Shown: positions 1 to 24,395 of the stretch, in pieces | How positions within the stretch are numbered: the stretch's first letter is position 1 | Layout: the number at the start of each line of letters is the position of its first letter | DNA from: an uncultured bacterium | GTDB taxonomy: Bacteria > Actinomycetota > Actinomycetes > S36-B12 | NCBI GenBank assembly: GCA_963793105.1 | Contig: CAWBZB010000003.1 | Coordinates: 74,770 to 138,769, forward strand | Direction of reading: 5' to 3' | Length of the DNA stretch: 64,000 nt | The notes under the pieces: model-generated | Databases searched by the model: none | Told to the model about the DNA's origin: nothing | The model's input: the letters and a program-made list of their open reading frames with translations, nothing else | Position numbers and translations under genes: made by a program

Positions 1-877
1 GCTCGTACCTCTCCTTTCCCGCCACGCCCACCCGTTGGCGGAGCATCCCGTAGTGCTCGAGGTAGTTGACCGCCTCGAGAAGGGTGATGCCGACGAGCGC
101 CTGGACGACGAGGTAGGGAAGGACGACCGGACCGAGCCACACCACCATCGCGATCCACAGGACGACGGAGAGCAGCCAGGCGTTCACGACGTCGTTGTCG
201 AGCCGGAAGGGACGCCGGCCACGCAGGTGGAGCCGACGCGACTCCAGCCGCCACGCGCTCGCCACCGAGCCGAGCACGGTGCGGGGCCAGAACGCGTAGA
301 AGCTCTCCGCCACCCGGCTGCTGGCGGGGTCTTCGGGGGTGGCGACGCGGACGTGGTGACCGCGGTTGTGCTCGATGTAGAAGTGGCCGTAGAAGCTCTG
401 CGCCAACGCGATCTTGGACAGCCACCGCTCGTGACTCTCGCGCTTGTGCCCGAGTTCGTGAGCGGTGTTGATACCGAGCCCGGCGATGAAGCCGACCGTG
501 ACCGCGAGACCGATCCGGTCCGCGACGGGCACGTCGCCGGTGGCGATGAACCAGAACGCGGCGGCGAAGCCCGCGTACTGGACCGGCAGGAACAGGAAGG
601 TCAGCCAGCGGTAGTAGCGATCGTTCTCGAGATCGGCGATGACCTCATCCGGAGGATTCGACCGGTCCAGGCCGGCGAGCACATCGACGACCGGGACGAC
701 CCCGAGGATGACGAGCGGACCCAGCCAGAACCACACGCTCCATCCGGTCAGGGAGAACAGGCCGAGGGCGGCGAAGGGCAGCGCCGGCATCACAAGGGCC
801 ACGAGCCACAGGTATCGCTTGCGGTCACGCCACCGCGGGCGTTCGGGGGTCTGCAGAGGATGTCCGCGCTCCGTCAC
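1..877 (-). CDS. alkB: alkane 1-monooxygenase (AlkB-type integral-membrane hydroxylase), C-terminal end beyond left edge
   Basis: Not in the ORF track because there is no stop inside the window. Manual minus-strand translation from GTG at 877-875 (GAAGGGG RBS-like motif about 6 nt upstream) gives VTERGHPLQTPERPRWRDRKRYLW... It carries the His boxes HELGHK and EHNRGHH plus NYLEHYG, typical of AlkB. The plus-strand ORF 35..913 is its antisense shadow. Confidence 0.85.
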   Translation of the reverse strand, partial: MTERGHPLQTPERPRWRDRKRYLWLVALVMPALPFAALGLFSLTGWSVWFWLGPLVILGVVPVVDVLAGLDRSNPPDEVIADLENDRYYRWLTFLFLPVQYAGFAAAFWFIATGDVPVADRIGLAVTVGFIAGLGINTAHELGHKRESHERWLSKIALAQSFYGHFYIEHNRGHHVRVATPEDPASSRVAESFYAFWPRTVLGSVASAWRLESRRLHLRGRRPFRLDNDVVNAWLLSVVLWIAMVVWLGPVVLPYLVVQALVGITLLEAVNYLEHYGMLRQRVGVAGKERYE

Positions 878-959
878 TGTCGCCCCTTCGCCGTCGTGGT
901 TTACAGACGATAGGCGAATGTAAAGCCTGCGACAAGGTTCGGCGCCGAGTACGTCCGGC

Positions 960-2171
960 TCAGCCGGGCAGCGGCAGCCAGCTGACCGGCGAACCCGCCG
1001 GAGTGACCCCCTCGGGCGCCACGGCGAACCCCGTCGACTGGGCCAGGCCGCGCAGCATCGCGGAGCCGCCGTACGGCGAGAGCTCGAAGACGCCATCGAC
1101 GACGTTCCCGGCGATCAGTCGCGTATGACCGGCCGGAGCTCGCAGTTCGTCGGCACTCGGCACCTGCCGAAGCAGGCTCGCTGGCCTCCCCAGCATCGAG
1201 TCCACGATCGGCCGGGCGAGGGTCATGAGGCCGACGATCGCGGAGTGCGGGTTCCCGGGCAGCCCGACGATGGGCACCCCTGCGCCCTCGCCGTCGGGAA
1301 GGCAGGCCAGCAGCATCGGATGCCCCGGGCGGACGGCCACCCGGTCGACGATCAGCTCTCCCCCGGCCGCCCGGATCGCCGCGTGCACGTGGTCGCGCGG
1401 ACCAGCAGCCGTACCGCCCGTGGTGATCACGAGGTCGACGGACGCCGCCGCCGAGGTGAACGCCTGCACCACCGACTCGAGCTGGTCCGCCACGTGCTCA
1501 CGCGAAACCACCTCGGCCCCCAGGCCGGCCAGCCACCGAGGCAGCTGGGGGCCCAGGGAGTCACGCACCCGCCCGTCGCTCGGGATGCCGGATCGGAGCA
1601 ACTCGTCTCCCAGCAGCAGCAGCGTGACCCTGGGGCGCCGGACGACCGGCACGACGTCGTGCCCGGTCGCGGCCAGGAAGCCGGCCAGGGCGGGACCGAC
1701 CTCGGTCCCGGCCGGCGCGATGAGATCGCCGACACGACACTCCTCACCCGCCGCTCGGATGTCGGCTCCACGCACCACGGAGCCACGGATCTCGCCGGCC
1801 GCCACGTCGGCGTCCTCCCATCGCAGCACGGCATCTGCCCCGGCCGGGATCACCGCTCCCGTCGCGATCCGCGCGCCGGTGCCCGGCAGGAGCGCCTCGC
1901 GCAGTGGGGCCCCGGCCGCGACATCGCCGACGATCCGCCAAGGACCCGGGCCGGCGACCACCCAGCCATCCATCGCCGAGGTGTCGAAGCTGGGCAGGTC
2001 GCACGCCGCTGTGCAGTCACGCGCCAGGACCCGCCCCGCAGCCTCGTCCACGGGAACGTCCTCCTGACCGAGCACGGTCGCGACCGAGCCGGCCGCGTCA
2101 CGCGCAGCCCACCAGTCCGCCTCCACGCGAGCCGTGGACGCGCGATCGGCCATGCCGTCCTCCCGGCTCAT
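960..2171 (-). CDS. moeA: molybdopterin molybdenumtransferase MoeA
   Basis: 403-aa ORF with MoeA-like motifs (SAMDGWVV, TTGGTAAGPRDH, GLPGNPHSA). It is the last gene of the co-directional block containing the molybdoenzyme. Confidence 0.85.
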   Translation of the reverse strand: MSREDGMADRASTARVEADWWAARDAAGSVATVLGQEDVPVDEAAGRVLARDCTAACDLPSFDTSAMDGWVVAGPGPWRIVGDVAAGAPLREALLPGTGARIATGAVIPAGADAVLRWEDADVAAGEIRGSVVRGADIRAAGEECRVGDLIAPAGTEVGPALAGFLAATGHDVVPVVRRPRVTLLLLGDELLRSGIPSDGRVRDSLGPQLPRWLAGLGAEVVSREHVADQLESVVQAFTSAAASVDLVITTGGTAAGPRDHVHAAIRAAGGELIVDRVAVRPGHPMLLACLPDGEGAGVPIVGLPGNPHSAIVGLMTLARPIVDSMLGRPASLLRQVPSADELRAPAGHTRLIAGNVVDGVFELSPYGGSAMLRGLAQSTGFAVAPEGVTPAGSPVSWLPLPG

Positions 2172-2204
2172 GCGTACCGCTCGGCGCGGCTCGCCACTCG
2201 GAGG

Positions 2205-3164
2205 CTACTGTTTCGACGCGGATGCGTCCTCGGGCTGCCCCGCATCGGCACCGGACGTATCGAAGTCCGCCACCTCCATCTTCGCCGGCCAGCGGATGAG
2301 GACGATGATCCCCACGATCACGAGGACGATCCCGGCGATGGTCTCGACCATCTGGATGGCAGATCCCTGCGCGAAGTCGATGATGCTGCCCCCGACCTCC
2401 TGGAACAGGATGAAGGCGGCCATCACGAGGACGAACCAGCCGAAGCCCTTGCGGAGCCGGTCCGGATGGATGCGGCCCGACAGGACGGCGCCGATCACCG
2501 ACCCGATCACCGCCATGGCTGTCACCACGAGCGTGATCGACCAGTCGAACTGGGTCTCCGGGTTCCACGCCACCTGGCCGCCGCTGAACGTCAGCGCGTA
2601 GCCGAGGAATCCGGCCGTCGACTTCATCATCACGACGAGCAGCGACGTTCCCACCGCGATCTGCATGGGCAGGCCGCCGAGGAGCACCAGCGCAGGAACG
2701 ACCAGGAACCCGCCGCCCGCGCCGACCAGTCCCGTCACCAGGCCGACCACGAAGCCGTCGAGGAGGATCCGGAAGAGCGGCAGTCCCGTGTGGGCCTTGC
2801 CCTGCACCTGCTTGCGGCCTCGGATCATGGCAATCGCGGTGACCGCCATCATCACCGCGAAGGCCGCCAGCAGCACCGCCCCCGGCAGAAGGGCTCCGAT
2901 CTGGCCGCCGGCGAACGCACCTGCCATTCCCGCCGCCCCGAAGATCAGGCCGGTGCGCCAGCGCACGCGCCCTGAGCGGGCGTGGTGGATGAGGCCGAAG
3001 GCCGACGTGACCGCGACGACGAACAGGCTCGCGGCGATGGCCTGCTTCGGGTCGAAGCCGACCACGTACACCAGCAGCGGCGTGGTGAGGATCGAGCCGC
3101 CGCCGCCGAGCAGTCCGACGGCCATGCCGATGAAGATCGCGAGGAACGCGGCCAGAGCCGTCAT
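2205..3164 (-). CDS. TauE/SafE family sulfite/organosulfonate exporter-like membrane protein
   Basis: 319-aa polytopic, Gly-rich membrane protein with two similar halves, as in the TauE/SafE (DUF81) family. Its start lies 41 nt downstream of the molybdoenzyme stop on the same strand. Confidence 0.8.
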   Translation of the reverse strand: MTALAAFLAIFIGMAVGLLGGGGSILTTPLLVYVVGFDPKQAIAASLFVVAVTSAFGLIHHARSGRVRWRTGLIFGAAGMAGAFAGGQIGALLPGAVLLAAFAVMMAVTAIAMIRGRKQVQGKAHTGLPLFRILLDGFVVGLVTGLVGAGGGFLVVPALVLLGGLPMQIAVGTSLLVVMMKSTAGFLGYALTFSGGQVAWNPETQFDWSITLVVTAMAVIGSVIGAVLSGRIHPDRLRKGFGWFVLVMAAFILFQEVGGSIIDFAQGSAIQMVETIAGIVLVIVGIIVLIRWPAKMEVADFDTSGADAGQPEDASASKQ

Positions 3165-3204
3165 GGGACGAGACCCTCCTCCTCAGTGCCGGCGAGCAAA
3201 GCCG

Positions 3205-6105
3205 TCACTCGGCACCCTCCTGATTGACGTAGTAGGCCTTGAGTTGCGGCATGACCGGCCGCATCATGAACATCGGCCTTCTCAGGCCCTCCGCGTTCGG
3301 CCCGGGACGGGTCTTCGCGAGCCACTCGCGGTACACCTCGCGCGACTTGGCCGTGTCCACCACGACGTCGCCGTACTTGTCCTCGTCGTGAGCCTTCTCC
3401 ACGGTCACCTTCTGGTGCCAGCAGTGCATGCCCGACCAGGTGTCCGGGTGCACCGCGAAGGCCAGGTTCTGGTGCACGCCCGGGTCCTCCCAGGTGATGC
3501 GCATCGAGTCGGGGTCGCCGCTCGCGAAGGGCCGCACGCCCTCCTTGTACCGAAGGCGCCAGCGACCGTCCTCGAGGCGCCCGACATCGACCTTCCCCGA
3601 GACCCAGCGGCTCCCAGCATCATCCGTGGTGCGCCAACGGCCCATGTGGTGCGAGAGGGCGATGACGCCTGGCTTGATCCCCTCGGTTGCCCAGATCCGG
3701 GCGACGAAGTAGCCGATCTCGGTGCTGACCCGGATCATGTCCCCGGTAGCGAGCCCGAACCGATCGGCATCGACCTTGTTCATCCACACCGGGTGCTTGT
3801 TGCTGATCTCGTTGAGGTACTTGGCGTTTCCGGACCTCGTATGGATCAGCGTCGGCAGCCGGAACGTCGGCACCAGCGCCATCTCCCCCTTGGACGAGTC
3901 GATGGACCGGGCGGAGACGTGCGACTCGATGTAGCAGGGAGTCGCGTACTCCGGCCAGCCGAAGTCCGCCATCGCCGGCGAGTAGAGCTCGAGCTTCCGC
4001 GAGGCGGTGAGCCAGCCCGCCACCTCGGAGCCGTCCTCGAGGACGACGCCGACCGCTCCCGCCTCGCCGACGAGGGGCTTCTGCGTCTCCGGGGTGACGG
4101 GCTTGCGCAGCACGCCGTTCTCGTCCGGCTCGGCCCCCTCCCGCTCAGCAGGGGTGAGCGGACGCTCGTCCTGCCGGTAGAGGTCATTGACGATCTCCAC
4201 GGCGCCGTACTTGCGCATGTACTCCAGGGGCGACAGGCCCTCCTTGGCCGCCTTCTCCGGCAGCCCGGGCACGTTGTTGTCGAAGATGTACCCGAAGTAC
4301 TCGTCGACAGTCACCTTGCTGCCCGGCTGACCCGGCGTCTCGAAGTACTTGCGGATCCCGAGGGAGCCGTCCGGGTCGATGCGCCAGGACAGCTCGATCC
4401 AGAACTCGACCTCCTCCCACACCTCGCCGGGATTCGCGTCGCGCGTGTCGGCGAACTTCTCGCCCAACTTCTCCAGGGCGACCCGGCGGACCGGCTGCCG
4501 GAAGCCGAGCCACTTGCCCGCGTACTGCTCGTACGACATGGTGTCGTGGCGCTCCGTGCTGTGGCCGAACGGGAGGATGTAGTCGGCGAAGATCGCCGTC
4601 TCGTTCCAGGTCGGCGTCATCGCGACATGGCAGCCCACGAGGTTCTCGTCCGAGAGCGCCTCGATCCAGGAGAACCCGTCCGGGTTGGTCCAGACCGGGT
4701 TGTAGACGCGGCTGAAGTAGGTGTCGATCTTGCCGCGACCCTCGAGGAGGAAGTGCGGCAGCAGGATGGAGAGCTCGTTCGTCGACATGGGGAACTCGCT
4801 CGGCCAGAGCAGTTCGTTCCAGGAGTCGTGACCCCCGGGCATGTTCGGGCCGTGGGGAATGAACTTGTTCCAGCCGTTGGGGCTGGTCCCGCCCTTCTGC
4901 CCGATGCTCCCGGTGAGCACGGTGAGGAAGAACAGTGCGCGTGCCACGGCCCAGCCGCCCAGGTTTCCGGCGCTGGCCGCGCGCCAGGTGTGCGCCGCGA
5001 GCTTGCCGTCGCAGCCGGCGACGATCTTCGCCACCTTCTCGATCTGCCTGGCGGGCACGCGGCACTCCTCGGCCGCGAAGTCGAAGGTGTACTTCTGGTA
5101 GTCCTCGGTCAGCGCCGTCTTGAATGCGTCGAAGTCGTCGGCAGCCTGGTCGGGGTGCAGCGCCTGCATGTACGTCTGCCAGTTCACCCACCGGCGGATG
5201 TAGTCCCAGGCGACGGCGTCGGTTCGCAGGAGGTAGGCGGCGATGGCGAGGAGCATGGCCGCCTCGCTGCCCGGCCACGGCGACACCCACACGTCCGCGT
5301 GCGAGGCGGTGTTCGACAGCCGCGGATCGACCACCACCAGCTTCGCCTTGCCATGCACCTTCGCGTCCATGATGCGCTGGGCATGCGGGTTGAAGTAGTG
5401 GCCCGACTCAAGATGCGCGGACAGCAGCAGGATGACCTTGGCGTTCTCGTGGTCCGGGGAGGGCCGGTCGTAGCCGCCCCAGATGGAGTAACCGAAGCGC
5501 GCGCCCGCCGAGCAGATGTTGGTGTGCGTGTTGTTGCCGTCGACGCCCCAGGTCAGCAGGACCCGCTCGATGAAGCCGTCCTCCCCGTGGCGCCCCACGT
5601 GGTACATGACCTCATTGCGCCGGTCCTCGATGATCGCGGTGCGGATCCGCCCGGCGATGTCGTCCATCGCGTCATCCCACGACACTCGCTCGAACTGCGC
5701 GCTGCCGCGTGGACCGCTGCGCTTGAGGGGGTACAGGATGCGCTCGGGGTCAGAGGTCTGGTTGATCGTGGCTGGGCCCTTGGCGCAGTTGCGTCCGCGC
5801 GAACCCGGATGTGCGGGGTTGCCCTCGACCTTCACGACCTCTTTGGTCTCCCGGTCGACGTACGCGAGCAGCCCGCACGCGGACTCGCAGTTGAAGCAGG
5901 TGGTGGGAACCAGCATGTAGTGCTTCTCGACCTTGCGGGGGTGTGCCTTCGCGTCGTACATGACGACGTCGTCCCAGGTGTCCACCGGCGGGTAGTTGGA
6001 CACCGTCTCGCGGACGCGCAGGCCGACATGCTCGGGTCGGTCGGCGCCCACGGACCCGGCTGACGGTCCGTGCGGCTCGGTAGCGGACCGATCGCGTGGC
6101 TTCAT
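3205..6105 (-). CDS. bis-MGD molybdopterin oxidoreductase catalytic subunit (Psr/Phs/Soe-like), no Tat signal
   Basis: 966-aa ORF. The N-terminal CFNCESACGLL...x27...NCAKG is the C-x2-C-x3-C-xn-C 4Fe-4S motif of MopB enzymes. AAGGGA lies 8 nt upstream of the ATG at 6105. No RRxF(L/K) twin-arginine motif occurs in the 55 residues before the Cys motif. Substrate is not determinable from sequence alone. Confidence 0.85.
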   Translation of the reverse strand: MKPRDRSATEPHGPSAGSVGADRPEHVGLRVRETVSNYPPVDTWDDVVMYDAKAHPRKVEKHYMLVPTTCFNCESACGLLAYVDRETKEVVKVEGNPAHPGSRGRNCAKGPATINQTSDPERILYPLKRSGPRGSAQFERVSWDDAMDDIAGRIRTAIIEDRRNEVMYHVGRHGEDGFIERVLLTWGVDGNNTHTNICSAGARFGYSIWGGYDRPSPDHENAKVILLLSAHLESGHYFNPHAQRIMDAKVHGKAKLVVVDPRLSNTASHADVWVSPWPGSEAAMLLAIAAYLLRTDAVAWDYIRRWVNWQTYMQALHPDQAADDFDAFKTALTEDYQKYTFDFAAEECRVPARQIEKVAKIVAGCDGKLAAHTWRAASAGNLGGWAVARALFFLTVLTGSIGQKGGTSPNGWNKFIPHGPNMPGGHDSWNELLWPSEFPMSTNELSILLPHFLLEGRGKIDTYFSRVYNPVWTNPDGFSWIEALSDENLVGCHVAMTPTWNETAIFADYILPFGHSTERHDTMSYEQYAGKWLGFRQPVRRVALEKLGEKFADTRDANPGEVWEEVEFWIELSWRIDPDGSLGIRKYFETPGQPGSKVTVDEYFGYIFDNNVPGLPEKAAKEGLSPLEYMRKYGAVEIVNDLYRQDERPLTPAEREGAEPDENGVLRKPVTPETQKPLVGEAGAVGVVLEDGSEVAGWLTASRKLELYSPAMADFGWPEYATPCYIESHVSARSIDSSKGEMALVPTFRLPTLIHTRSGNAKYLNEISNKHPVWMNKVDADRFGLATGDMIRVSTEIGYFVARIWATEGIKPGVIALSHHMGRWRTTDDAGSRWVSGKVDVGRLEDGRWRLRYKEGVRPFASGDPDSMRITWEDPGVHQNLAFAVHPDTWSGMHCWHQKVTVEKAHDEDKYGDVVVDTAKSREVYREWLAKTRPGPNAEGLRRPMFMMRPVMPQLKAYYVNQEGAE

Positions 6106-6160
6106 GTGTTTCGTCCCTTCTCGGACGTCGTGGTCGAGGGAGGTTCCGTGCCGTGCCGTG

Positions 6161-7684
6161 TCAGGAGAGCGGCGGATCCTGACCGGCCATCACGAAGGCC
6201 TTCTCATGCAGGTACAGCGCGGGCTGGACGATGAGGCCGGCGAGCGCCGCCACCAGGGCAGGAGCCCCGAACAGCACGGTGGCGGCCACGGCCGCCCCGA
6301 GGACCGACAGGGCCACGGAGCCACCCCAGAACATGCGTGCGTAGCGACCGTGGGTGATCGCGTGCGCGGCCACCTCCGCATTGCGCGTCGAGTGCTTGCC
6401 ACCGAACTCCACCGCCGTGATGAGCAGGTGCGCCACCACGCCGATGATCAGTGCCCACGACAGCCACTCAATGGTGCTGCGCGAAGGCTCGATCACGAGT
6501 GCCACGATCAGGAGGACTCCGGACCCGACCATCGCGGCCTGCGCCTGGAGGTGCCAGAACAGCACCGGCGACTGCCAGAGATCGCGACCCTCGGCCTGCC
6601 CGAAGAGGAAGGCGGTGTATCCGGCTGTCATCACGGCGGCCGGGACGGCGGGCCAGGCCAGCCAGTCGATCGCCGACTCCTGACCGAACACGCCGGCGAG
6701 GAACCACAGGCCCCCTACCGCGGCCATGATCCCCAGGAAGATCCCACCGATCGCGAGCCACGAGGTCCGGTTGATCTTGCGCGGATCGAGGAGGAACAGG
6801 AAGCGATCCGGACGCTTGAGATCCCAGATCAGGAGCACCGCCGTCACCAGCAGGAACAGTTCCGCGATGAATGGAGTGGCGATGGTCAGGAGTCCTGAGC
6901 GGTCGTCGGACGAGATGATGAGGAGTGCCCCGAGGAGGAGGGCGCCGGCCGCGATGGACTTCGTCCACAGGTAGGTCCAGACCTTCCAACCCCACGGTCG
7001 TGGGTGGGAGGTGTTGAGGGTGGTTCGAGCGTTGCTGACCGGGTCGCCGGGAAGCTCGGCTGCGGTCTCGAGGCGCAGGGGGTCCGCGTCCGCCCAGAGG
7101 TAGGTGCCATCCACGGGTGCGGAGAGCGGGTCGAGGACGGTCTGGTCCGCGCCCACGTAGAAGACGTTCGGCCGCGTGCCCTGCTCCGGTGTACGCACGT
7201 TCACCGGCGTGATGCTCAGGAACTTGCTGATCCCGCTCGTCGGATCATCGACGTCGCCCATCCAGATCGACTGAGTGGGGCACACCTGCACGCACGCAGG
7301 CTCGAGCCCGTTGTCGACGCGGTGTGCGCAGAAGTTGCACTTGGCCGCTGTGTGGGTGTTCTCATCGATGTAGATCGCGTCGTAGGGGCAGGCCTGCATG
7401 CACATCTTGCAGCCGATGCACTGCTCGTTGTCGAAGTCGACGATCCCGTCATCGCGCTTGAACAGAGCCGAGGTCGGGCAGGCCTTGACGCAGGGTGCGT
7501 CGGTGCAGTGGTTGCACCGCATGACGCCCATCTCGCGCGTGACGTCGGGGTACTCCCCCTTGTCCACATACTTGACCCAGGTTCGGAACTGACCTAGCGG
7601 GACGTCGTGCTCGGTCTTGCAGGCGACGGTGCAGGCATGGCAGCCGATACACGTCCGCTGGTCAATGGCGAAGCCATATTGCAC
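6161..7684 (-). CDS. fused 4Fe-4S ferredoxin (NrfC/PsrB/DmsB-like) and NrfD/PsrC-like 8-TM quinone-interacting membrane subunit
   Basis: 507-aa ORF. The first ~170 aa carry four Cys clusters (CIGCHACTVAC, CNHCTDAPC, CIGCKMCMQAC, CNFC...CVQVC). The rest has about 8 hydrophobic helices. There is no signal or Tat motif; the protein starts MQYGFAIDQRTC. Confidence 0.85.
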   Translation of the reverse strand: MQYGFAIDQRTCIGCHACTVACKTEHDVPLGQFRTWVKYVDKGEYPDVTREMGVMRCNHCTDAPCVKACPTSALFKRDDGIVDFDNEQCIGCKMCMQACPYDAIYIDENTHTAAKCNFCAHRVDNGLEPACVQVCPTQSIWMGDVDDPTSGISKFLSITPVNVRTPEQGTRPNVFYVGADQTVLDPLSAPVDGTYLWADADPLRLETAAELPGDPVSNARTTLNTSHPRPWGWKVWTYLWTKSIAAGALLLGALLIISSDDRSGLLTIATPFIAELFLLVTAVLLIWDLKRPDRFLFLLDPRKINRTSWLAIGGIFLGIMAAVGGLWFLAGVFGQESAIDWLAWPAVPAAVMTAGYTAFLFGQAEGRDLWQSPVLFWHLQAQAAMVGSGVLLIVALVIEPSRSTIEWLSWALIIGVVAHLLITAVEFGGKHSTRNAEVAAHAITHGRYARMFWGGSVALSVLGAAVAATVLFGAPALVAALAGLIVQPALYLHEKAFVMAGQDPPLS

Positions 7685-7688
7685 GGGA

Positions 7689-7919
7689 TCACTTCTTTCG
7701 GATGACGAAGCTCAGGACTCCCTGATCCTCAGACGACTCGACCAACTCGTTCCCAGTCTGGCTTGCCCACGCGGGGATGTCAGAGCGAGCGCCGTTGTCC
7801 GTCGCGTCGACGCGCATCAGCTGGCCCGACGTCAGCTCCTTGGCCGCCTTCGCCGCCATGAGGACGGGCATGGGGCAGTTCTGCCCGCGGGCGTCTACGA
7901 CCTTGTCGATGGTGTCCAT
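7689..7919 (-). CDS. tusA: TusA-like sulfur carrier protein
   Basis: The internal ATG at 7919 of ORF 7689..8024 gives a 76-aa protein, MDTIDKVVDARGQNCPMPVLMAAKA..., with the TusA CPxP active-site motif. The 35-codon upstream extension is Arg/Ser-rich and overlaps the dsrE-like gene's 3' end. Confidence 0.8.
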   Translation of the reverse strand: MDTIDKVVDARGQNCPMPVLMAAKAAKELTSGQLMRVDATDNGARSDIPAWASQTGNELVESSEDQGVLSFVIRKK

Positions 7920-7947
7920 GAAATCTCCCGAGCGTTGTTGTGAGCGG

Positions 7948-8448
7948 TCAGATGAAGAGGCTGATAGAGGACTTCGACATGCGGGCCAGCGCCGTCGCCG
8001 CGCCGATCGGCGGCCCGAGGCCATCGACCATCTGATCGGCCTCGATGCCGAGCAGGTCCATGGTCATCTGGCACGGCCACATCTGGACGCCCATCTCCTG
8101 GCCCATCGCGAACAGGTCCTCAGGGGTCATGAGGTTGTTCTTCTTCGCAACCTTGCGCATCATCCATCGGCCCATGCCGGCCATCTTCATCTTGGAAAGG
8201 TGCGCCTTCTTCATGCCCGGGGCGTTCATGCCCGCAAGCATCTTCGTCAGGGCGTCGTTGCCGGTGATGCGGACGTCGTCGCGCACCAGGGGGAACAGTC
8301 CCCAGAACGTGTAGAACACGGCGACGTCCATGCCATTCGCCGCCGCCGTGGAGCTCAGGATCATCGTCGGCCAGAGCTTGTCGAGGTCACCGCTGAAGGC
8401 GATGATCGTCATCATCTCGGGGTCTTTGCCCTGCTCGTTCTCAGTCAC
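7948..8448 (-). CDS. DsrE/DsrF-like sulfur-transfer family protein
   Basis: 166-aa ORF with a GTG start. DsrE/F-like fold signature (IIAFSGDLDK..., conserved Cys in MWPCQMT). First gene of the minus-strand operon. Confidence 0.75.
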   Translation of the reverse strand: MTENEQGKDPEMMTIIAFSGDLDKLWPTMILSSTAAANGMDVAVFYTFWGLFPLVRDDVRITGNDALTKMLAGMNAPGMKKAHLSKMKMAGMGRWMMRKVAKKNNLMTPEDLFAMGQEMGVQMWPCQMTMDLLGIEADQMVDGLGPPIGAATALARMSKSSISLFI

Positions 8449-8649
8449 TTCTGGCTCCCGCCTCGCTTGCCTTGCGCCGAAGGTATGGGTCCGACGCCGT
8501 CAGATCAAGCCCTTGGCCTGAATTGCCTCCGAATTCGGAATCAAGTTCAGAAAGTTCAGAAAACCGCTGTTCAAAAGGGGTATTGGCATATTAGCGTCTG
8601 CGCATATGTCGATTCAAGCAGACATTCTCATCCGTGTGAAGGAGGCGAC
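8449..8649. promoter_or_regulatory. divergent promoter/operator region between dsrE-like operon and rhodanese-MBL/arsR operon
   Basis: A 201-bp conspicuously AT-richer gap between divergent starts. It contains a perfect 12-bp palindrome TCCGAATTCGGA (8528-8539), a tandem 9-mer AAGTTCAGA x2 (8543-8560) and the inverted repeat GTCTGC...GCAGAC (about 8596-8623). A GGAGG RBS lies at 8641-8645. Confidence 0.5.
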
Positions 8650-9786
8650 ATGGGTCGCACCGTGACGAGTAGGGAGCTCTACGACGAGATCGAGCAGGGG
8701 ACGATCCCGCTGCTCCTCGACGTGCGGAACCAGGACGAGTTCGCGGCCTGGCAGGTCGAGGGAGTCCGTCCCGTCGAGACTCGCAACGTGCCGATCTGGA
8801 TGGCGGTCGAGGGAATCGAGGACCTCGCTCAGGAGGTGCCGGACAACACGGTGGTGATCTGTGCCCACGGGAACGGCAGCGATCTGCTCCTGGACATGCT
8901 CGCCGATGAGGGCAAGCACGTGCGCAACCTCGAGGGCGGCACCCAGGCCTGGGCGGCGCTCCTCGTGCCTCGCGCCCTGCCGGGCTTGCCGACCGGCATG
9001 GTGGGGTGGCAGGTACAGCGCCCGTCGAAGGCCTGCCTGTCCTACGTGATCGGCGTACCGGGCCACAACGCGATCGTCGTCGACCCCGCGCGATTCCCGC
9101 AGCCCTACATCGACCTCGCGGCCAGCGAGGGCATGACGATCACCCATGTGATCGATACCCATGTCCATGCGGACCACATCACCGGTGGCCCGGAGCTCGC
9201 GGAGCGCACCGGGGCGACCTATCACGTGCCCATCGAGGACACCGGCAGGACGCCAACCCCGTTCGCCAACGAGCCCCTTCCCGACGGCGCCGAGATCGAC
9301 CTCGGCGACGCGAAGGTGCACATCCTGTCCATCAAGATGCCAGGGCACACCCCCGGATCGACGTGCATCAACCTGCCGGGCAGCTTCCTGCTGACCGGCG
9401 ACACCGTGTTCGTGCGCGGCGTCGGCCGACCGGACCTGACCGGCAAGGCGGAGGAGCTCGCCCGGGAGCTCTTCCACACCGTCCACGATCGGCTGCGGCC
9501 GCTGGACCCGGCGACGATGATCCTTCCCGCCCACTGGTCGTTCGACGACGAAATCGGACCCGATGGGCTCGTGCGCACGGATCTCCAGTCTGTGTTCTCG
9601 TCGACCTTGCTCAACGAGGAGGACATGGTCACCTTCGTCAAGGAGATCGTGACATCGCTCCCGAGCGCACCGGATACCTACGACACCATCCGGCTCGTCA
9701 ACTCCGGCCGGCAGACGGCCACTGCCGATGAGCTGGAGTTCCTGGAGATCGGCAAGAACCAGTGCGCCGCCTCCACGACAACGTAG
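8650..9786 (+). CDS. rhodanese domain fused to MBL-fold hydrolase (persulfide dioxygenase-like, Blh/CstB-type)
   Basis: In-frame ATG at 8650 within ORF 7777..9786, preceded by GGAGG. The N-terminal rhodanese domain has an active-site-like loop, ICAHGNGS. It is followed by an MBL domain with THVHADHITGG. The ORF part upstream of 8650 is antisense to dsrE/tusA. Confidence 0.8.
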   Translation: MGRTVTSRELYDEIEQGTIPLLLDVRNQDEFAAWQVEGVRPVETRNVPIWMAVEGIEDLAQEVPDNTVVICAHGNGSDLLLDMLADEGKHVRNLEGGTQAWAALLVPRALPGLPTGMVGWQVQRPSKACLSYVIGVPGHNAIVVDPARFPQPYIDLAASEGMTITHVIDTHVHADHITGGPELAERTGATYHVPIEDTGRTPTPFANEPLPDGAEIDLGDAKVHILSIKMPGHTPGSTCINLPGSFLLTGDTVFVRGVGRPDLTGKAEELARELFHTVHDRLRPLDPATMILPAHWSFDDEIGPDGLVRTDLQSVFSSTLLNEEDMVTFVKEIVTSLPSAPDTYDTIRLVNSGRQTATADELEFLEIGKNQCAASTTT

Positions 9787-9853
9787 AGCGGCGAGGCGGA
9801 CCGTCCGACGTGACCCCGTAGTGTGACCAGACACCCAGCAGTCAGGAGAGCGC

Positions 9854-10213
9854 ATGGACCGGCAGACGTCCGCCGAGCTCTACGAACTGCATGCCCGGAT
9901 CTGCAAGGCCATTGCCGATCCCAAACGCCTCCTCATCATCTCCGAGCTCCGGGGTGGCCCGATGACCGTGGGCGATCTCTCGGAATCCCTCGAGATCAGC
10001 CAGTCCAACACCAGCCAGCACCTGGCGGTCCTGCGTGACCGCGGCATCGTCACGGCCCAGAAGGATGGGCTCAACGTCTACTACCGCCTGTCGAGCAAGA
10101 AGGTCCTCCGTGCGATCGACCTGCTGCGCGAGTTCATGGTCGAGCAGATCGGCGACCAGAGCAGGCTGGGTCGGGCCGCCACGCGCGAGAAGCCCGCGCC
10201 GGCGCGCCGCTAG
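9854..10213 (+). CDS. ArsR/SmtB family transcriptional regulator
   Basis: 119-aa ORF with a winged-HTH (VGDLSESLEISQSNTSQHLAVLRDRGIV) and an AGGAGAG RBS. It has a single Cys (C17, ARICKAI). Confidence 0.85.
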   Translation: MDRQTSAELYELHARICKAIADPKRLLIISELRGGPMTVGDLSESLEISQSNTSQHLAVLRDRGIVTAQKDGLNVYYRLSSKKVLRAIDLLREFMVEQIGDQSRLGRAATREKPAPARR

Positions 10214-10437
10214 CCAGACCCCCCACTAGGCGGAACGCGCGTGGGACCACCGAGAGGGTGCCGGTGGGTGCGTAGCCGTAGGTCGCCCTCGAGGCACTCC
10301 GGCGTGTCTTGCCGACTCCGGTTCACGGCGCCTCCTGACGCAGGAACCGGCCCGAATCCGGGGCCGATCCAAGGCGCTCACGGACGCCAAAAGGGGGATA
10401 ATTGAGTTGGAGGGACCGGAAGAAGGAGGTGTCTCAG

Positions 10438-11241
10438 ATGATGACGATGACTTCCCACAGCAGCTTCGGCCCAACCGGAACGGCACCCGCCCCAGCATCC
10501 TCAGGAATGGCACTCTTTGCGATGCCGGTGCATGCCCCGGCGACCGGACTGACGTCACCACCGACTCCGACCGCACCACAACACCATGTTGAGCATCGCG
10601 GCTGGATCTATGCGGCGATCGCCCTGATCGCTGCCGCACTGGTTCTCGGAGGAATGGCCGCGTACCAGTACGTCACTACCCAAGACACGACCCCGGCGAC
10701 GACCGCGGTTTCGGCCATCCCGGCCGAATACGCCGGCGTCAGCCTGCCGCAAGCCATGCGACTGGCCGACCAGGCCGCCCTCGCGGCCACCATCCCGGCC
10801 GAATACGCCGGCGTCAGCCTGCCGCAAGCCATGCGACTGGCCGACCAGGCCGCCCTCGCGGCCACCATCCCGGCCGAATACGCCGGCGTCAGCCTGCCGC
10901 AAGCCATGCGACTGGCCGACCAGGCCGCCCTCGCGGCCACCATCCCGGCCGAATACGCCGGCGTCAGCCTGCCGCAAGCCATGCGACTGGCCGACCAGGC
11001 CGCCCTCGCGGCCACCATCCCGGCCGAATACGCCGGCGTCAGCCTGCCGCAAGCCATGCGACTGGCCGACCAGGCCGCCCTCGCGGCCACCATCCCGGCC
11101 GAATACGCCGGCGTCAGCCTGCCGCAAGCCATGCGACTGGCCGACCAGGCCGCCCTCGCGGCCACCATCCCGGCCGAATACGCCGGCGTCAGCCTGCCGC
11201 AAGCCATGCGACTGGCCGACCTGGCCGCCGCGAACCAGTGA
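10438..11241 (+). CDS. single-pass membrane protein with 25-aa tandem repeats (unknown function)
   Basis: ATG at 10438 preceded by GAAGGAGG, in frame within ORF 10402..11241. The protein has a Pro/Thr-rich N-terminus, one TM helix (WIYAAIALIAAALVLGGMAAY), then 7 copies of IPAEYAGVSLPQAMRLADQAALAAT. No family recognised. Confidence 0.6.
   Translation: MMTMTSHSSFGPTGTAPAPASSGMALFAMPVHAPATGLTSPPTPTAPQHHVEHRGWIYAAIALIAAALVLGGMAAYQYVTTQDTTPATTAVSAIPAEYAGVSLPQAMRLADQAALAATIPAEYAGVSLPQAMRLADQAALAATIPAEYAGVSLPQAMRLADQAALAATIPAEYAGVSLPQAMRLADQAALAATIPAEYAGVSLPQAMRLADQAALAATIPAEYAGVSLPQAMRLADQAALAATIPAEYAGVSLPQAMRLADLAAANQ
10717..11229. repeat. tandem repeat, 75-bp unit, about 6.8 copies; six complete copies identical
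   Basis: Units start at 10717, 10792, 10867, 10942, 11017, 11092 and 11167. The first six are base-identical by eye, and the last diverges from 11222. The period is 25 codons, so the frame is preserved. Confidence 0.95.
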
Positions 11242-19604: not shown

Positions 19605-20054
19605 TCAGGGGCCGTCCCGGTAGGCGAGTTGGGCTCGCGACTCGACCACGACGCGTCCGCCCAGGAGCTCTGACCAGAAGGGCACCCGCAGCGGGGCGCT
19701 CAGCACGACGACGACCTCGAGGCCGTCGGAGTCCACGCGATCCAGCGTCATCCCCTCCATCGACGATGCTCGCGAGCGGGTCAGGTGGGCACGGACGAGC
19801 CGCGGCACGTCCGCCGGGTCGAGCCGGGTCGCCCCCGACGCTCCTTCGCGGTAGTAGGCGGGCAGATCGATGCCCTGGGCACCGGCCAGGGCAGAGGCGT
19901 CAGCGAGGGCGTGCAGGTGCATGCGCTCGAGGAAGGCGGCCGAGGCATCGACGAGGACGACGACGGCCAGCAGGCACACGGCGACGAGGCCGACGCCGAG
20001 GATGAGCACGCTGCCCGCGTCCGTCCGGCCGCGCCGATGGCGACCGCGGATCAT
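19605..20054 (-). CDS. TadE/TadG-like pseudopilin-type protein (Rv3654c/55c-neighbourhood type)
   Basis: 149-aa ORF with an N-terminal basic stretch plus a hydrophobic helix (GSVLILGVGLVAVCLLAVVVLV) and an ADASALAGAQ motif. Last gene of the Tad block, overlapping the previous gene by 4 nt. Confidence 0.6.
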   Translation of the reverse strand: MIRGRHRRGRTDAGSVLILGVGLVAVCLLAVVVLVDASAAFLERMHLHALADASALAGAQGIDLPAYYREGASGATRLDPADVPRLVRAHLTRSRASSMEGMTLDRVDSDGLEVVVVLSAPLRVPFWSELLGGRVVVESRAQLAYRDGP

Positions 20055-20536
20055 CGGGCGACCTCACCCGGCTCGGCCACGGGGCTGCCGCGGTAGTCAT
20101 CCACCGGGGCACGATGCGTCGCCGTGATCGGGACGCTGACGGGCGCGTCGCCGGACAGCGACGACGGCAGCCAGGGCAGGGGGACCGACCACGCGAGGGT
20201 GACGTCGACGACCGAACCCGGCGTGAGGCACGGGCCGTCGGGACACGCGAGCCGCAGGGATCGGGGCGGCACCTGCAGACCGTGGTCGGCAAAGGCGAGT
20301 GCGGCCGCCGCGGCCGCGTGGGCCCGGCCGATCTGCGCGGTCGGAGCCGAACCGAATGCCCGACCTGCCTCGCGGACGGCCTGGGCGCTGGCGAACGCCG
20401 CCGACTGGACCGTCGCGACGCACAAGGCCAGGTACAGCAACGGGACCAGCACGCCGACGCCGATGACGATGAACTCCAGGATCGCGGCGCCCGCCTCGCC
20501 CGACGGTCGACCGCATGCCGCGCGCCTGCGCCTCAC
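20051..20536 (-). CDS. TadE-like protein
   Basis: 161-aa ORF with a TadE N-terminal motif (GAAILEFIVIGVGVLVPLLYL). 4-nt overlaps on both sides. Confidence 0.65.
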   Translation of the reverse strand: MRRRRAACGRPSGEAGAAILEFIVIGVGVLVPLLYLALCVATVQSAAFASAQAVREAGRAFGSAPTAQIGRAHAAAAAALAFADHGLQVPPRSLRLACPDGPCLTPGSVVDVTLAWSVPLPWLPSSLSGDAPVSVPITATHRAPVDDYRGSPVAEPGEVAR

Positions 20537-20970
20537 GAAGGACCCTCCTGCAGCGCATGCCCGGTGACCGACAACACGGAAGGACCGAGGAGTCCGATCA
20601 GGGGCAGGTCCGCCTCGATGCTCACCTCCATGACCGCGCGGCCGCCGATGACCATTCGTCGGGAGGTCACGTCGCGCACCACCGAGCCGGCGACGTTCTG
20701 CGTGAGCACGTGGCGAGCCCTGCGGACTCCGGCCCCCGGGTCCGCCCCCGCCAGCGCCGCCGCCCGGGCGCCCTCCCCCGCAGCCGACGTCAAGGTCGAT
20801 CGGACGTGGAGCGCCAGGGAGAACTGCACCACGGCCAGGGCCACGGCCATGACCAGCGGCACAACCAGAGCGAACTCGACGACCGCGCTCCCGCAGTCCG
20901 CACCCCGCATCGCGCGACGCATCCGGCCACGCATCCGGCGACGATTCCCAGCGCAGCGGCGGGTGGTCAC
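20533..20970 (-). CDS. TadE-like protein
   Basis: 145-aa ORF with a TadE N-terminal motif (GSAVVEFALVVPLVMAVALAVVQF). Confidence 0.65.
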   Translation of the reverse strand: MTTRRCAGNRRRMRGRMRRAMRGADCGSAVVEFALVVPLVMAVALAVVQFSLALHVRSTLTSAAGEGARAAALAGADPGAGVRRARHVLTQNVAGSVVRDVTSRRMVIGGRAVMEVSIEADLPLIGLLGPSVLSVTGHALQEGPS

Positions 20971-21209
20971 TAGGGCTGCGAGACCGAGCTGATGGCCCGG
21001 CCCAGCACGGCGGTCAGCTGGTCGTCGGCCACGAGCCAGATCGCGGTGACCAGCCCGGCGGTCATCACGGCCACGAGGACCCAGCCGGGCACGTCGCCTC
21101 GATCATCGGCGAAGTGTCGGTGGTGGGCGACGGCGTGCCACGCGCGCGTGGCCGTCCGGCGGAACCACGCTCGCCGGACTCGATCCAGATGACGCTGCGG
21201 TGCGTGCAT
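20970..21209 (-). CDS. small Flp/DUF4244-like pilin candidate
   Basis: ATG at 21209 with an AGGAAGG RBS, inside the spurious 339-aa ORF 20970..21989. The 79-aa product ends ...DDRGDVPGWVLVAVMTAGLVTAIWLVADDQLTAVLGRAISSVSQP. Its position between tadC and the tadE genes matches flp. Confidence 0.5.
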   Translation of the reverse strand: MHAPQRHLDRVRRAWFRRTATRAWHAVAHHRHFADDRGDVPGWVLVAVMTAGLVTAIWLVADDQLTAVLGRAISSVSQP

Positions 21210-21262
21210 GGACGACCTTCCTTTCGGTGGGCCGACGGTGGACCCGGCGGCCGGTGGGGGCG

Positions 21263-22165
21263 CTAGGGGACGACTACTCGCAGTGCTTGGATGCCCGGGT
21301 AGATCGCGATGAGGACCACGCTGGGAAGGACCAGGAAGACGATCGGGACGAGCATGAGGACGTCCTTGCGCCCGGCCAGTTCCAGCAGCCGCCGACGATC
21401 GGACGCCCGCGCGTCGGCGGCCTGGGCGCGCAACACCTCGGCCAGTGGCGTGCCCCGCTCGAGTGCCACCCGGACGCTCTCGGACAGGCGCTGGACGGAT
21501 GGGACCGCGGTACGCACCGCCAGGGCCAGCAGTGCCTCGTCGACGCTGCGACCGCTGCGCACCTCGTTGACCGCGAGGGTCACCTCCTCGCCGAGCGGAC
21601 CGCCCATCGTGGCGGCCGCGGTCTCCAGTGCCGGGACCGGAGACGCGCCCGCGGCCACGGCCAACGCCAGGAGCTCGGCCAGGGCGGGGAGCTGTGACTC
21701 CAGCACGCGCTGGCGCGTGCGCACGGCCCGCCGCAATGCCGCATCGCATCCGGACCACCCCGCCACGGCGCCACAGCCGACCAGGAGCGCGAGGCCGACC
21801 GGGGAGGGGCCGCCCACCCGCAGTGTCAGTCCGAGGACCAATCCGCCCACCGCGCCCAGCGCCGACCAGACCAGCCGCTCGAGCCGATAGTCGGCCGCAG
21901 CCATCGCGCGACCCGCCCTGTGCAGGCGACGGGCCAGATCGCGGTCGGTCGCGCCATCGACGGCGGAACGGGAGCGCAGGAGCTCCCACGCCAGCAGTGG
22001 CGCCTCGGACAGCCCCCCGCGCGCGCGGCCGGTGGTCGGGACTCCCACGAACGGACCGATGCGATCCGCCACTCGTGGGGCACGGCGCGCCCCCGCCCAG
22101 CCCAGCACGAGCAGGACACCGGCCCCGCCGAGCAGCCCCGCCATCGCGCCGGCGGGCGAGGCCAT
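21263..22165 (-). CDS. tadC: type II secretion system F-family protein TadC
   Basis: The ATG at 22165 forms an ATGA overlap with the tadB stop. The 300-aa product has the GspF/TadC repeat (SQLPALAELLALAVAAGASP...). The longer ORF to 22330 overlaps tadB. Confidence 0.75.
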   Translation of the reverse strand: MASPAGAMAGLLGGAGVLLVLGWAGARRAPRVADRIGPFVGVPTTGRARGGLSEAPLLAWELLRSRSAVDGATDRDLARRLHRAGRAMAAADYRLERLVWSALGAVGGLVLGLTLRVGGPSPVGLALLVGCGAVAGWSGCDAALRRAVRTRQRVLESQLPALAELLALAVAAGASPVPALETAAATMGGPLGEEVTLAVNEVRSGRSVDEALLALAVRTAVPSVQRLSESVRVALERGTPLAEVLRAQAADARASDRRRLLELAGRKDVLMLVPIVFLVLPSVVLIAIYPGIQALRVVVP

Positions 22166-24273: not shown

Positions 24274-24395
24274 GGCTGGGACGCTACGTTCACGACCCCC
24301 GTCACCGCCATGGTCGATGTGCGGCCTGTGGACAACCCGCGACGAGCGTCCGCCGATCCCCTGCTGGAGCATCTCGGCATGGCTATGGTTCAGCA

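Follow-up and report, generated by a model that had tools for sequence, protein, structure and literature searches.

An actinobacterial locus joining cst/yrk-like persulfide genes to a distinct, uncharacterised family of molybdoenzymes with a predicted cytoplasmic active site

Persulfide detoxification genes are described in the cst operon of Staphylococcus aureus, which shows cstR, cstA, cstB and sqr as well as tauE, and in the yrk cluster of Bacillus, with the gene order yrkD-yrkE-yrkF-yrkH-yrkI-yrkJ. In the yrk cluster, YrkE is a DsrE-type carrier, YrkI a TusA, YrkF a rhodanese, YrkH a metallo-beta-lactamase (MBL) protein of the persulfide dioxygenase (PDO) type and YrkJ a TauE protein, S. 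aureus CstA is a fusion of rhodanese, TusA and DsrE carriers, and the known cst/yrk and FisR operons pair the PDO with a sulfide:quinone oxidoreductase (SQR) (PMC9918477). One published account gives a PDO followed by SoeABC as an accepted route in other organisms (PMC11507549). The locus described here, at positions 960-10213 of a 64,000-nucleotide stretch of DNA (the window; contig CAWBZB010000003.1, positions 74,770 to 138,769 of the forward strand, assembly GCA_963793105.1) from an uncultured actinomycete of the S36-B12 lineage, contains two modules, a persulfide relay with a PDO and a molybdenum (Mo) enzyme, which would be under one divergent ArsR-controlled promoter region. From its sequence, we give about even probability to its being a persulfide detoxification and oxidation unit, in which the relay and the PDO feed sulfite to a cytoplasm-facing sulfite:menaquinone oxidoreductase; the substrate of the Mo enzyme, the direction of electron flow, the signal of the regulator and the export substrate are those that we infer.

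The eight genes of the locus were found where the initial annotation put them when the open reading frame (ORF) coordinates were re-read, and every domain assignment passes the Pfam gathering score. The minus-strand operon starts with a gene encoding a DsrE2-like protein (7948-8448; PF13686), followed by tusA (7689-7919; 76 aa; TusA), a gene encoding a fusion of an iron-sulfur (FeS) ferredoxin and NrfD (6161-7684; 507 aa; Fer4_11 and NrfD), the gene encoding the Mo subunit, MopB (3205-6105; 966 aa; Molybdop_Fe4S4, Molybdopterin and Molydop_binding), tauE (2205-3164; PF01925) and, as the last gene, moeA (960-2171; MoeA_N, MoCF_biosynth and MoeA_C), with gaps of 28, 4, 55, 40 and 33 nt in this direction, tusA ending 4 nt ahead of the FeS-NrfD start. 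On the plus strand, a gene encoding a rhodanese-MBL fusion (8650-9786; Rhodanese and Lactamase_B) is probably co-transcribed with the arsR gene (9854-10213; HTH_5), which follows after 67 nt. Between both groups lies a divergent promoter/operator region of 201 nt (8449-8649), relatively AT-rich (52.7% GC, versus 67.5% in the locus and 69.7% in the window). Gene content, orientation, operon-like spacing and the AT-richer divergent gap are therefore as first reported, borne out by the coordinates and the GC values. The persulfide parts list, a DsrE-type carrier, TusA, rhodanese, a PDO-type MBL, TauE and a repressor, is that of cst and yrk, and by its gene content this half of the locus is of the known kind, in a split version. 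It differs from cst and yrk in that the repressor is ArsR-type and not CsoR/CstR-type (CstR/YrkD), in that the rhodanese is fused N-terminally and not C-terminally to the PDO, in that SQR is not seen, and in that the carriers share their transcription unit with a Mo-FeS-NrfD enzyme, which to our knowledge cst and yrk clusters lack. The new part would be this molybdoenzyme, in place of, or added to, SQR, and gene contexts point to an orphan family consistently linked to persulfide metabolism. No published description of the cluster architecture or of its persulfide link was found in the searchable literature, in agreement with the initial annotation, which knew of no experimental characterisation of the combined architecture.

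In the rhodanese-MBL protein, the rhodanese domain (aa 8-103, nt 8671-8958, plus strand) shows the six-residue loop C71-A-H-G-N-G-S, which presumably resembles that of GlpE, and the Cys is present in 47/47 aligned homologues; with this active-site Cys at the loop start, the domain is predicted to be a catalytic rhodanese. The PDO-type MBL domain (aa 128-295, nt 9031-9534, plus strand), beyond which there is a C-terminal helical extension, keeps the HxHxDH motif and shows the conserved residues H171, H173, D175, H176, H233, D251 and H295. Three of these, H171, H233 and D251, occupy the ligand positions of 4YSB, 3TP9 and 3R2U and are conserved in 49-50 of 50 homologues. The closest solved structures are the PDO-rhodanese 3TP9 and S. 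aureus CstB (3R2U), and further relatives are the Myxococcus PDO (4YSB), human ETHE1 (4CHL) and BpPRF. With a 2-His-1-Asp Fe(II) site and proven PDOs as closest relatives, the domain can be classed as ETHE1/CstB-type, as had been supposed. Among the carriers, TusA (Pfam, 81 bits) has an invariant CPxP active-site Cys15 and the DsrE2-like protein (PF13686, 144 bits) has an invariant Cys126, its single conserved Cys (50 loci in both cases). The latter, for which an alternative ATG start lies 33 nt downstream, reaches 80 bits against the NCBIfam DsrE2 equivalog (cut-off 210) and shows no predicted transmembrane (TM) segment in a hydropathy scan, so it is considered a soluble, DsrE2B-like relative. 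The rhodanese domain, TusA and DsrE2 would carry sulfane sulfur as cysteine persulfides, and the Fe(II) PDO domain would turn carrier sulfane sulfur into cytoplasmic sulfite with O2.

The FeS-NrfD fusion protein contains a four-cluster ferredoxin part (about aa 1-200, nt 7085-7684, minus strand; Fer4_11 at aa 55-144) with 16 Cys in four CxxCxxCxxxC-type groups, and an NrfD/PsrC-type, haem-less quinone-binding membrane anchor (about aa 224-507, nt 6161-7015, minus strand; NrfD at aa 224-462) with about eight TM helices (six strong hydropathy segments scored and two weaker ones taken by eye). There is no signal peptide ahead of the ferredoxin domain, and the K/R-rich loop 287-314 fits an N-in topology. 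In MopB, the cysteines of the FS0 cluster, C70, C73, C77 and C107, are invariant or nearly so and Cys198-Ser199 is invariant (80 loci). In alignments, Cys198 falls on Cys173 of Thermus PsrA and on the cysteine that binds Mo in ArrA. No twin-arginine translocation (Tat) motif was found in the window MopB, and only 2/117 homologues show a loose one. With no Tat signal and a ferredoxin domain that begins at the very N-terminus (residue 1), the redox chain is predicted to face the cytoplasm and the active site of MopB is likely cytoplasmic, where the initial annotation had also placed it. An AlphaFold2 model of MopB was poor (mean pLDDT 62, pTM 0.57) and hence was not used.

These features are shared with SoeABC, which has a Mo-bis(pyranopterin guanine dinucleotide) (Mo-bisPGD) subunit with FS0 and without export signal, a four-cluster ferredoxin and a haem-less, eight-TM NrfD-type anchor (PMC8076601). 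The predicted cytoplasm-facing active site and the place downstream of a cytoplasmic sulfite-producing enzyme are also alike, whereas in the window B and C are fused, the order is BC then A, and the MopB family has no name derived from KEGG Orthology (KO) in IMG. Canonical soe clusters show three separate genes in the order A-B-C, the order soeA-soeB-soeC being reportedly that of Dahl et al. in 2013. The fusion is spanned by a single tblastn match in nearly all 80 loci, three short or truncated contigs having no match, it is also annotated in Thermomicrobium roseum, Natrinema and Myxococcota, and wherever both genes are kept, the A gene comes after the fused B-C gene. Canonical SoeC is reported only in Proteobacteria, three Clostridia and Aquificae (PMC8076601); this distribution without Actinobacteria and the missing KO-derived name speak indirectly against orthology with SoeA. 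A tblastn search of plasmids showed no soeA-like gene of about 950 aa; members of the family, Arx-like genes and PhsA genes were found instead, and the matches in Ralstonia and Caballeronia plasmids are ORFs of 732-758 aa. No relative of about 950 aa with an A-B-C context was present among the examined contexts (P0124, P0126, P0137 and P0151) of the 150 best cluster representatives, and the unfused relative P0151, used as the query of a homology search, matched nothing but itself; the P0137 and P0159 contexts were disregarded because their neighbouring gene calls look fragmented. By analogy, the enzyme is proposed to work like SoeABC, which is not a claim that it is SoeABC.

None of the NCBIfam models reaches its cut-off with MopB: DmsA/YnfE gives 163 bits, PhsA 161 (cut-off 694), Fdh-alpha 132 (cut-off 666), TtrA 113 and ArrA 109 (cut-off 1600). 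The best PDB matches are ArrA (E 1e-31) and T. thermophilus PsrA (E 3e-27), with good alignment confined to the N-terminal half, and the family shows an extra conserved C-terminal region of about 135 aa which is not in ArrA. Its nearest characterised relatives are Arr/Arx and Psr/Phs, with 25-31% identity: about 25% over 54% of the protein with a plasmid PhsA found by tblastn, and 30.5% over 89% with an Arx-like enzyme of Azoarcus. IMG names the family only as COG0243, whereas a Psr/Phs-like relative does carry a KO name, which suggests that no KO, soeA included, is assigned to it. On these comparisons, MopB and its fused partner form a distinct, strongly conserved and uncharacterised family. 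The expectation that MopB falls outside the formate, nitrate and arsenate families held, the cut-offs being unreached and Cys198 being followed by Ser and not by the His of formate dehydrogenases; the label of SoeABC/Psr/Phs-type complex given initially was too simple for a separate family with a B-C fusion and the gene order B/C then A. With Psr/Phs and Arr/Arx the enzyme shares the Cys Mo ligand, the FS0 cluster and a four-cluster B subunit with an NrfD anchor, and it differs in the lack of a Tat motif, in the extra C-terminal region and in having no arsenic genes nearby; Psr/Phs and Arr/Arx enzymes are Tat-exported and periplasmic. The context of the Arx-like Azoarcus enzyme, with PhnD/histidine kinase/sigma54 genes, TorD and ACR3, also differs from the window. 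In Azoarcus sp. KH32C plasmid pAZKH (L085, 1242-13136), this Arx-like cluster shows the unusual order FeS, NrfD, MopB, TorD, with genes encoding PhnD-like, histidine kinase and sigma54 regulator proteins and an ACR3 arsenite pump as neighbours. A function in arsenic metabolism was rejected, since no ars genes were found in the locus or in the scanned neighbours and the ArrA model scores far below its cut-off; the window ArsR, as we take it, also lacks the CVC arsenite site. Nitrate, DMSO and TMAO reductases were rejected as well, the relevant NCBIfam models being far below their cut-offs.

The FeS subunit finds its best NCBIfam match in TtrB (198 bits, below cut-off), and together with the weak matches of MopB to PhsA and TtrA this could indicate a quinol-oxidising cytoplasmic reductase for tetrathionate, thiosulfate, polysulfide or persulfide; the SoeABC enzyme of Aquifex was reportedly first obtained as a reductase of sulfur, tetrathionate and polysulfide. 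Such a function is among the less likely ones and is regarded as very improbable, since all the NCBIfam scores are far under the cut-offs, menaquinol could reduce thiosulfate or polysulfide only in an endergonic reaction, most of the hosts live aerobically (Rhodococcus, Nocardioides, T. roseum and haloarchaea), tetrathionate is not a known cytoplasmic metabolite, and an O2-dependent dioxygenase as partner points to oxidation.

Another described group to be compared is the FqoC group, modelled on CT0494 of C. tepidum, an uncharacterised NrfD complex of Actinobacteria, Chloroflexi, Deltaproteobacteria and Chlorobi, for which Calisto and Pereira (2021) tentatively proposed a formate:quinone oxidoreductase, FqoABC (PMC8076601). 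PSRLC3, found in green sulfur bacteria, appears in the literature as a system inferred to oxidise sulfite or as an alternative one for this reaction (PMC9324843; PMC6338057) and is encoded by two genes in Prosthecochloris (PMC5473276), and so the published guesses for PSRLC3/Fqo, sulfite oxidase versus formate:quinone oxidoreductase, conflict (PMC9324843; PMC6338057; PMC8076601). The MopB/FeS-NrfD family is probably this orphan family, to which it is likened by reported distribution and gene number only. PSRLC3 presumably corresponds to CT0494-0496, CT0494 included, and its PsrA-like subunit, as far as is known, has no export signal and belongs to a predicted cytoplasmic complex. The likeness extends over phylum distribution, two-gene layout and predicted cytoplasmic orientation; the difference is that in Chlorobi the presumed sulfite source would be rDsr and not a PDO, and that the context of TusA, DsrE2, PDO and ArsR is not reported there. 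When published CT0494 residues were matched to the NrfD domain with rigid offsets, 6/27 agreed, the maximum in shuffled sequences also being 6, and the same matching with aq_1231, TtrC and MccD was no better than shuffles.

If the families are the same, the window enzyme could be FqoABC and its sulfur neighbours incidental, as the proposal itself (PMC8076601), the UniRef name of some members, formate dehydrogenase, and an FNT-family channel gene adjoining the cluster in one metagenome-assembled genome (MAG; L015) would suggest. This formate reading, also among the less likely functions, receives minimal credence. The Mo ligand Cys198 is followed by an invariant Ser199 and not by the catalytic His of formate dehydrogenases, the Fdh-alpha score is far from its cut-off, and the linkage to PDO, rhodanese, TusA and DsrE2 is repeated in at least four phyla; it is the Cys-Ser pair and these sulfur-gene contexts that disfavour formate. 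FNT channels, moreover, are not limited to formate and nitrite, and some conduct hydrosulfide.

The closest MopB sequences, with 87-96% identity, belong to MAGs of freshwater Actinomycetota and 'Candidatus Nanopelagicales', in accordance with the high-GC Gram-positive host deduced before. Identity is at least 70% within Actinomycetota, 58-61% in Chloroflexus, Roseiflexus, T. roseum, Anaerolineales, Blastocatellia, Calditrichia and KSB1, about 50% in haloarchaeal plasmids and 41% in one Myxococcota MAG. More distant relatives (33-48% identity) show unfused B-C-A genes, usually with a TorD-like chaperone. At least 597 MopB relatives were found in a scan with one genome per species, and in a search of a protein collection all 8,000 scored candidates match at E <= 1e-10.

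Core synteny was counted in the 48 actinobacterial loci, from species-representative genomes, whose upstream flank reaches 4.5 kb or more. The core, ArsR and Rhd-MBL in one direction and DsrE2, TusA, FeS-NrfD and MopB in the other, is present with the same order and orientation in 43 of them, cultured hosts being Nocardioides, Intrasporangium, Rhodococcus opacus and R. jostii RHA1, whose cluster is on plasmid pRHL3 and carries generic annotation only. Because the arrangement recurs across related genomes it is not due to chance. The neighbourhood, for which a survey across Actinobacteria had been suggested, is conserved in Actinomycetota, which supports a sulfur role. In Rhodococcus, the cluster sits in a larger sulfur-stress island: in R. 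jostii RHA1 pRHL3 (L084; 1970-3765 and 14480-17910) it contains two further CstB-like MBL-rhodanese genes and genes encoding a thioredoxin, a CMD-family protein, an ArsR-rhodanese fusion regulator and an MFS transporter, and L081 is alike.

TauE and MoeA do not belong to this core. MoeA shows three Pfam domains above cut-off and 208 bits against its best NCBIfam equivalog (cut-off 534), and appears to be a divergent molybdopterin molybdotransferase paralogue; TauE (PF01925, 170.8 bits versus a cut-off of 32.6, with multiple hydrophobic segments in a hydropathy scan) is a predicted anion exporter of the TauE/SafE family. Each accompanies the cluster in 8/48 loci (MoeA at 40% identity or more), only in close relatives of the window locus, and by this distribution both are lineage-specific accessories. 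In other lineages the accessory slots contain SulP, DUF202, Mrp, MobA and TorD-like genes: a gene encoding an Mrp/NBP35 FeS carrier lies directly after MopB in 28 loci, and a DUF202 membrane-protein gene is found in 21 loci, with two copies between Rhd-MBL and ArsR in Rhodococcus. The TauE slot is taken by DUF202 proteins or by a SulP permease, the latter after Mrp (L039, L040, L045 and L047) or beside ArsR, and L008 has MobA-like and MoeA genes upstream of ArsR. The initial interpretation, which had made TauE and a dedicated MoeA parts of one unit, was therefore over-inclusive; largely right in outline, it is partly supported. The window has its own Mrp/NBP35 gene (55582-56724, plus strand; FeS_assembly_P and ParA) about 45 kb from the locus, and in Rhodococcus, Nocardioides and haloarchaea such a gene comes immediately after that of MopB. 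In L015, an actinomycetotal MAG (3454-6355), the FNT-family channel gene (Form_Nir_trans) adjoins ArsR, and a SulP-STAS permease gene lies between ArsR and Rhd-MBL.

Outside Actinomycetota, the pair is again accompanied by sulfur genes, and its recurrence with PDO genes in other phyla supports the sulfur role first assigned to the locus. Myxococcota show a sigma54 activator next to MBL-Rhd, two YeeE-type genes, FeS-NrfD and MopB; the pair directly adjoins a CstB-like MBL-rhodanese gene in Anaerolineales and KSB1; and the Chloroflexota locus L059 contains TusA, DsrE2, Rhd-MBL, FeS-NrfD and MopB, then a SulP-STAS-rhodanese gene. TusA and DsrE2 are linked to the pair again in Acidimicrobiia (L064) and in L063, and in T. 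roseum a CsoR-family regulator precedes it. Rhodanese, with 10 of the 127 neighbours counted in 25 non-actinobacterial loci, is the commonest family, followed by TorD-like (7), SulP and MBL (four each) and DrsE_2 (2). Three regulator families thus adjoin the pair, ArsR, CsoR and sigma54 activators, and each includes persulfide or sulfide sensors (BigR/SqrR, CstR and FisR, respectively). An SQR-type family is not present among the 25 neighbour families listed for these loci, and no SQR-type protein was found in the locus or in the ten size-compatible window ORFs scanned, two of which had no Pfam match.

Since TusA and DsrE2 are co-transcribed with the enzyme and no SQR is seen in these operons, two other substrates stay alive. 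In the first, the Mo enzyme would be a substitute for SQR, a polysulfide reductase working in reverse, which oxidises cytoplasmic HS- and places the sulfane sulfur onto TusA/DsrE2, from which it would pass to Rhd-PDO, with sulfite or thiosulfate exported by TauE or SulP. In the window, Myxococcota, Anaerolineales and KSB1 loci the Mo enzyme stands in the position where no SQR-type gene is seen, TusA and DsrE2 are in its transcription unit in 43/48 loci, and Psr/Phs are among its nearest characterised relatives. The S0/HS- couple (about -270 mV) can reduce menaquinone, and Wolinella Psr, which uses the carrier protein Sud, oxidises sulfide with naphthoquinone in vitro. We consider this substitution rather unlikely, because the identity with Psr/Phs is about 25% over half of the protein, with a PhsA score of 161 against 694; an SQR could be encoded elsewhere in the genome, the scan having covered the loci and window ORFs; members without nearby carriers or PDO would make toxic sulfane sulfur without a sink; and the comparative argument on PSRLC3 in green sulfur bacteria favours sulfite (PMC6338057; PMC9324843).

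In the second, the enzyme would oxidise a TusA- or DsrE2-persulfide, or a thiosulfonate, stepwise by Mo oxo-transfer, passing electrons to menaquinone, in an O2-independent route parallel to the PDO and as a third cytoplasmic system for sulfane-sulfur oxidation beside rDsr and sHdr. The tight conservation of DsrE2-TusA-FeS-NrfD-MopB, with gaps of 4-55 nt, the renewed linkage of TusA/DsrE2 to the pair in Acidimicrobiia and Chloroflexota (L064, L059 and L063), and the C-terminal extension missing in ArrA, which could be a docking surface, are in keeping with it, and rDsr and sHdr systems use the same carrier trio to deliver sulfur (PMC11094781). On the other side, nearby carriers are missing in most non-actinobacterial members, and the cstA-like relay of a cst/yrk system would account for the carriers just as well (PMC9918477). 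The probability assigned to this oxidation of carrier-bound sulfur is low, that of an improbable though live reading. We know of no precedent for a MopB enzyme oxidising a protein persulfide. Taken broadly, the proposal that the pair is a new cytoplasm-facing, menaquinone-reducing molybdoenzyme with the sulfane sulfur of TusA/DsrE2 as its substrate, either made from HS- or oxidised without O2, is an unlikely one.

The carriers could also have a maturation role, TusA and DsrE2 giving sulfur, for instance as a sulfido ligand, to the Mo cofactor together with MoeA. FdhD sulfurates the formate dehydrogenase cofactor, and maturation genes (MoeA, MobA, Mrp and TorD-like) do cluster with the enzyme. 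TusA influences Mo cofactor biosynthesis in Escherichia coli (PMC11094781). Nevertheless, DsrE2, TusA and rhodanese together are a sulfur-trafficking signature for oxidation or detoxification (PMC11094781; PMC9918477), and most members outside Actinomycetota are without TusA/DsrE2 and still need the cofactor, so that a purely maturational role is less likely too, and in our estimate highly improbable.

The product of arsR, a predicted repressor of the ArsR/SmtB family, scores 88.9 bits against the NCBIfam model HTH_metalloreg (cut-off 55) and 60 bits against the BigR equivalog (cut-off 155). Its motif ELHARxCKAIADPKRL is invariant and contains Cys17, the single invariant Cys, located in helix 1 and present in 44/44 homologues. 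The best PDB relatives are HlyU, NolR, YgaV, BigR and SqrR, and as in BigR/Blh of Xylella and Agrobacterium and in SqrR/HlyU/YgaV an ArsR-fold repressor is encoded beside a PDO-rhodanese gene. However, Ser30 and Val96 stand at the positions of two HlyU cysteines, so that in place of the helix 2/helix 5 Cys pair there is a lone Cys17; the protein is therefore not a dithiol sensor of the BigR/SqrR type, and the BigR-type regulator of the initial annotation was not upheld.

In the divergent gap, the operator-like element ATTAGCGTCTGCGCATAT (8590-8607) lies within the inverted repeat CATAT-N12-ATATG (8587-8608). It is unique in the window, with 0 matches expected at three mismatches or fewer. Divergent gaps of relatives show little common sequence besides this element; its core GCGCATA[TC] is present in 35/46 homologous gaps, as against 0.44 in shuffled sequence, a control that ignores the relatedness of the gaps, and it persists across genera whose gaps are otherwise unalignable. 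In Rhodococcus and Intrasporangium the element is the palindrome TATGCGCATA, and in the homologous gaps it lies 29-148 nt upstream of the Rhd-MBL start. As we take it, the element fits the NolR operator consensus (A/T)TTAG-N9-A(T/A), and it is a candidate ArsR binding site; the single-Cys ArsR would bind the conserved ATTAG...GCGCATAT element and probably be released upon a sulfur signal. A Shine-Dalgarno sequence, GAAGGAGG, precedes the Rhd-MBL start, and a scan of the gap for sigma-70 and terminator consensus showed nothing above chance, the missing sigma-70 match being expected in a high-GC actinobacterial host. The gap also contains a perfect 12-bp palindrome, TCCGAATTCGGA (8528-8539), and two tandem copies of the direct repeat AGTTCAGAA (8544-8561), neither of which was seen in the inspected homologous gaps of relatives.

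For the route from persulfide to sulfate, the Mo-bisPGD subunit would dock on the fused ferredoxin/NrfD protein, with a cytoplasm-facing redox chain as proposed for SoeABC; sulfite would be oxidised to sulfate by the Mo enzyme and two electrons would pass through five FeS clusters to menaquinone, while the anion would be exported by TauE in the window lineage or SulP in others and MoeA would help in cofactor loading. All the domains and catalytic residues that this needs are present, and invariant or nearly so in relatives. The sulfite reading is drawn from the orientation of the enzyme, its repeated pairing with PDO and anion permeases, the comparative argument on PSRLC3 and thermodynamics, as the sulfate/sulfite couple (about -516 mV) readily reduces menaquinone (about -74 mV). 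Several points weigh against it. The identity with PSRLC3 is drawn from reported taxonomic distribution and gene number only, and the IMG family name, COG0243, comes with no KO such as soeA. TusA and DsrE2 are apparently co-transcribed with the Mo enzyme and not with the PDO, an arrangement that a free-sulfite substrate does not need. CstB-type PDO-rhodaneses reportedly release thiosulfate rather than sulfite, according to work of the Giedroc laboratory. The exporters are non-discriminating, since they also accompany cst/yrk operons without a Mo enzyme, and in many family members (Chloroflexus, Blastocatellia and haloarchaea) a PDO is absent nearby.

The flanks of the locus are unrelated to it. 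On the left there is an edge-truncated gene (1-930, minus strand) of the AlkB/membrane fatty-acid-desaturase-like type, with the motifs HELGHK and EHNRGHH, unrelated to the sulfur genes. The right flank contains genes encoding a repeat protein, a PhoX-like protein, FtsEX and RF2. The repeat protein is encoded by an ORF (10402-11241, plus strand) with 6.9 copies of a 75-bp tandem unit, 99% perfect (array at 10715-11229), which gives the 25-aa repeat IPAEYAGVSLPQAMRLADQAALAAT after an N-terminal hydrophobic segment and has no Pfam match; the near-perfect array suggests a very recent expansion or an assembly-sensitive region. Downstream of prfB-ftsEX, Tad/Flp-type pilus assembly genes (TadE/G-like, T2SSF and T2SSE) are found at 19605-24380 on the minus strand.

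Sulfide and cysteine detoxification in aerobic heterotrophs is usually thought to end at exported sulfite or thiosulfate. The gene contexts connect a Mo enzyme with the way in which common aerobic heterotrophs respond to persulfide stress, and a sulfite:menaquinone step, if true, would make persulfide detoxification energy-conserving and complete to sulfate. If the substrate were instead the sulfane sulfur of TusA/DsrE2, the enzyme would add to rDsr and sHdr a third machine for sulfur oxidation in the cytoplasm, spread among aerobic heterotrophs (Actinomycetota, Chloroflexota and haloarchaea) and controlled in Actinomycetota by a single-cysteine ArsR sensor. With its conserved operator, this regulator may stand for one more type of sulfur-responsive repressor, not described so far. 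If the family is PSRLC3/Fqo, its function is a contested one; the gene contexts argue for a sulfur substrate. The presence of the cluster on R. jostii RHA1 plasmid pRHL3 makes the question of function directly testable. The MopB family is very large and strongly conserved, and the proposed sulfite oxidation would provide this orphan enzyme family with a testable role.

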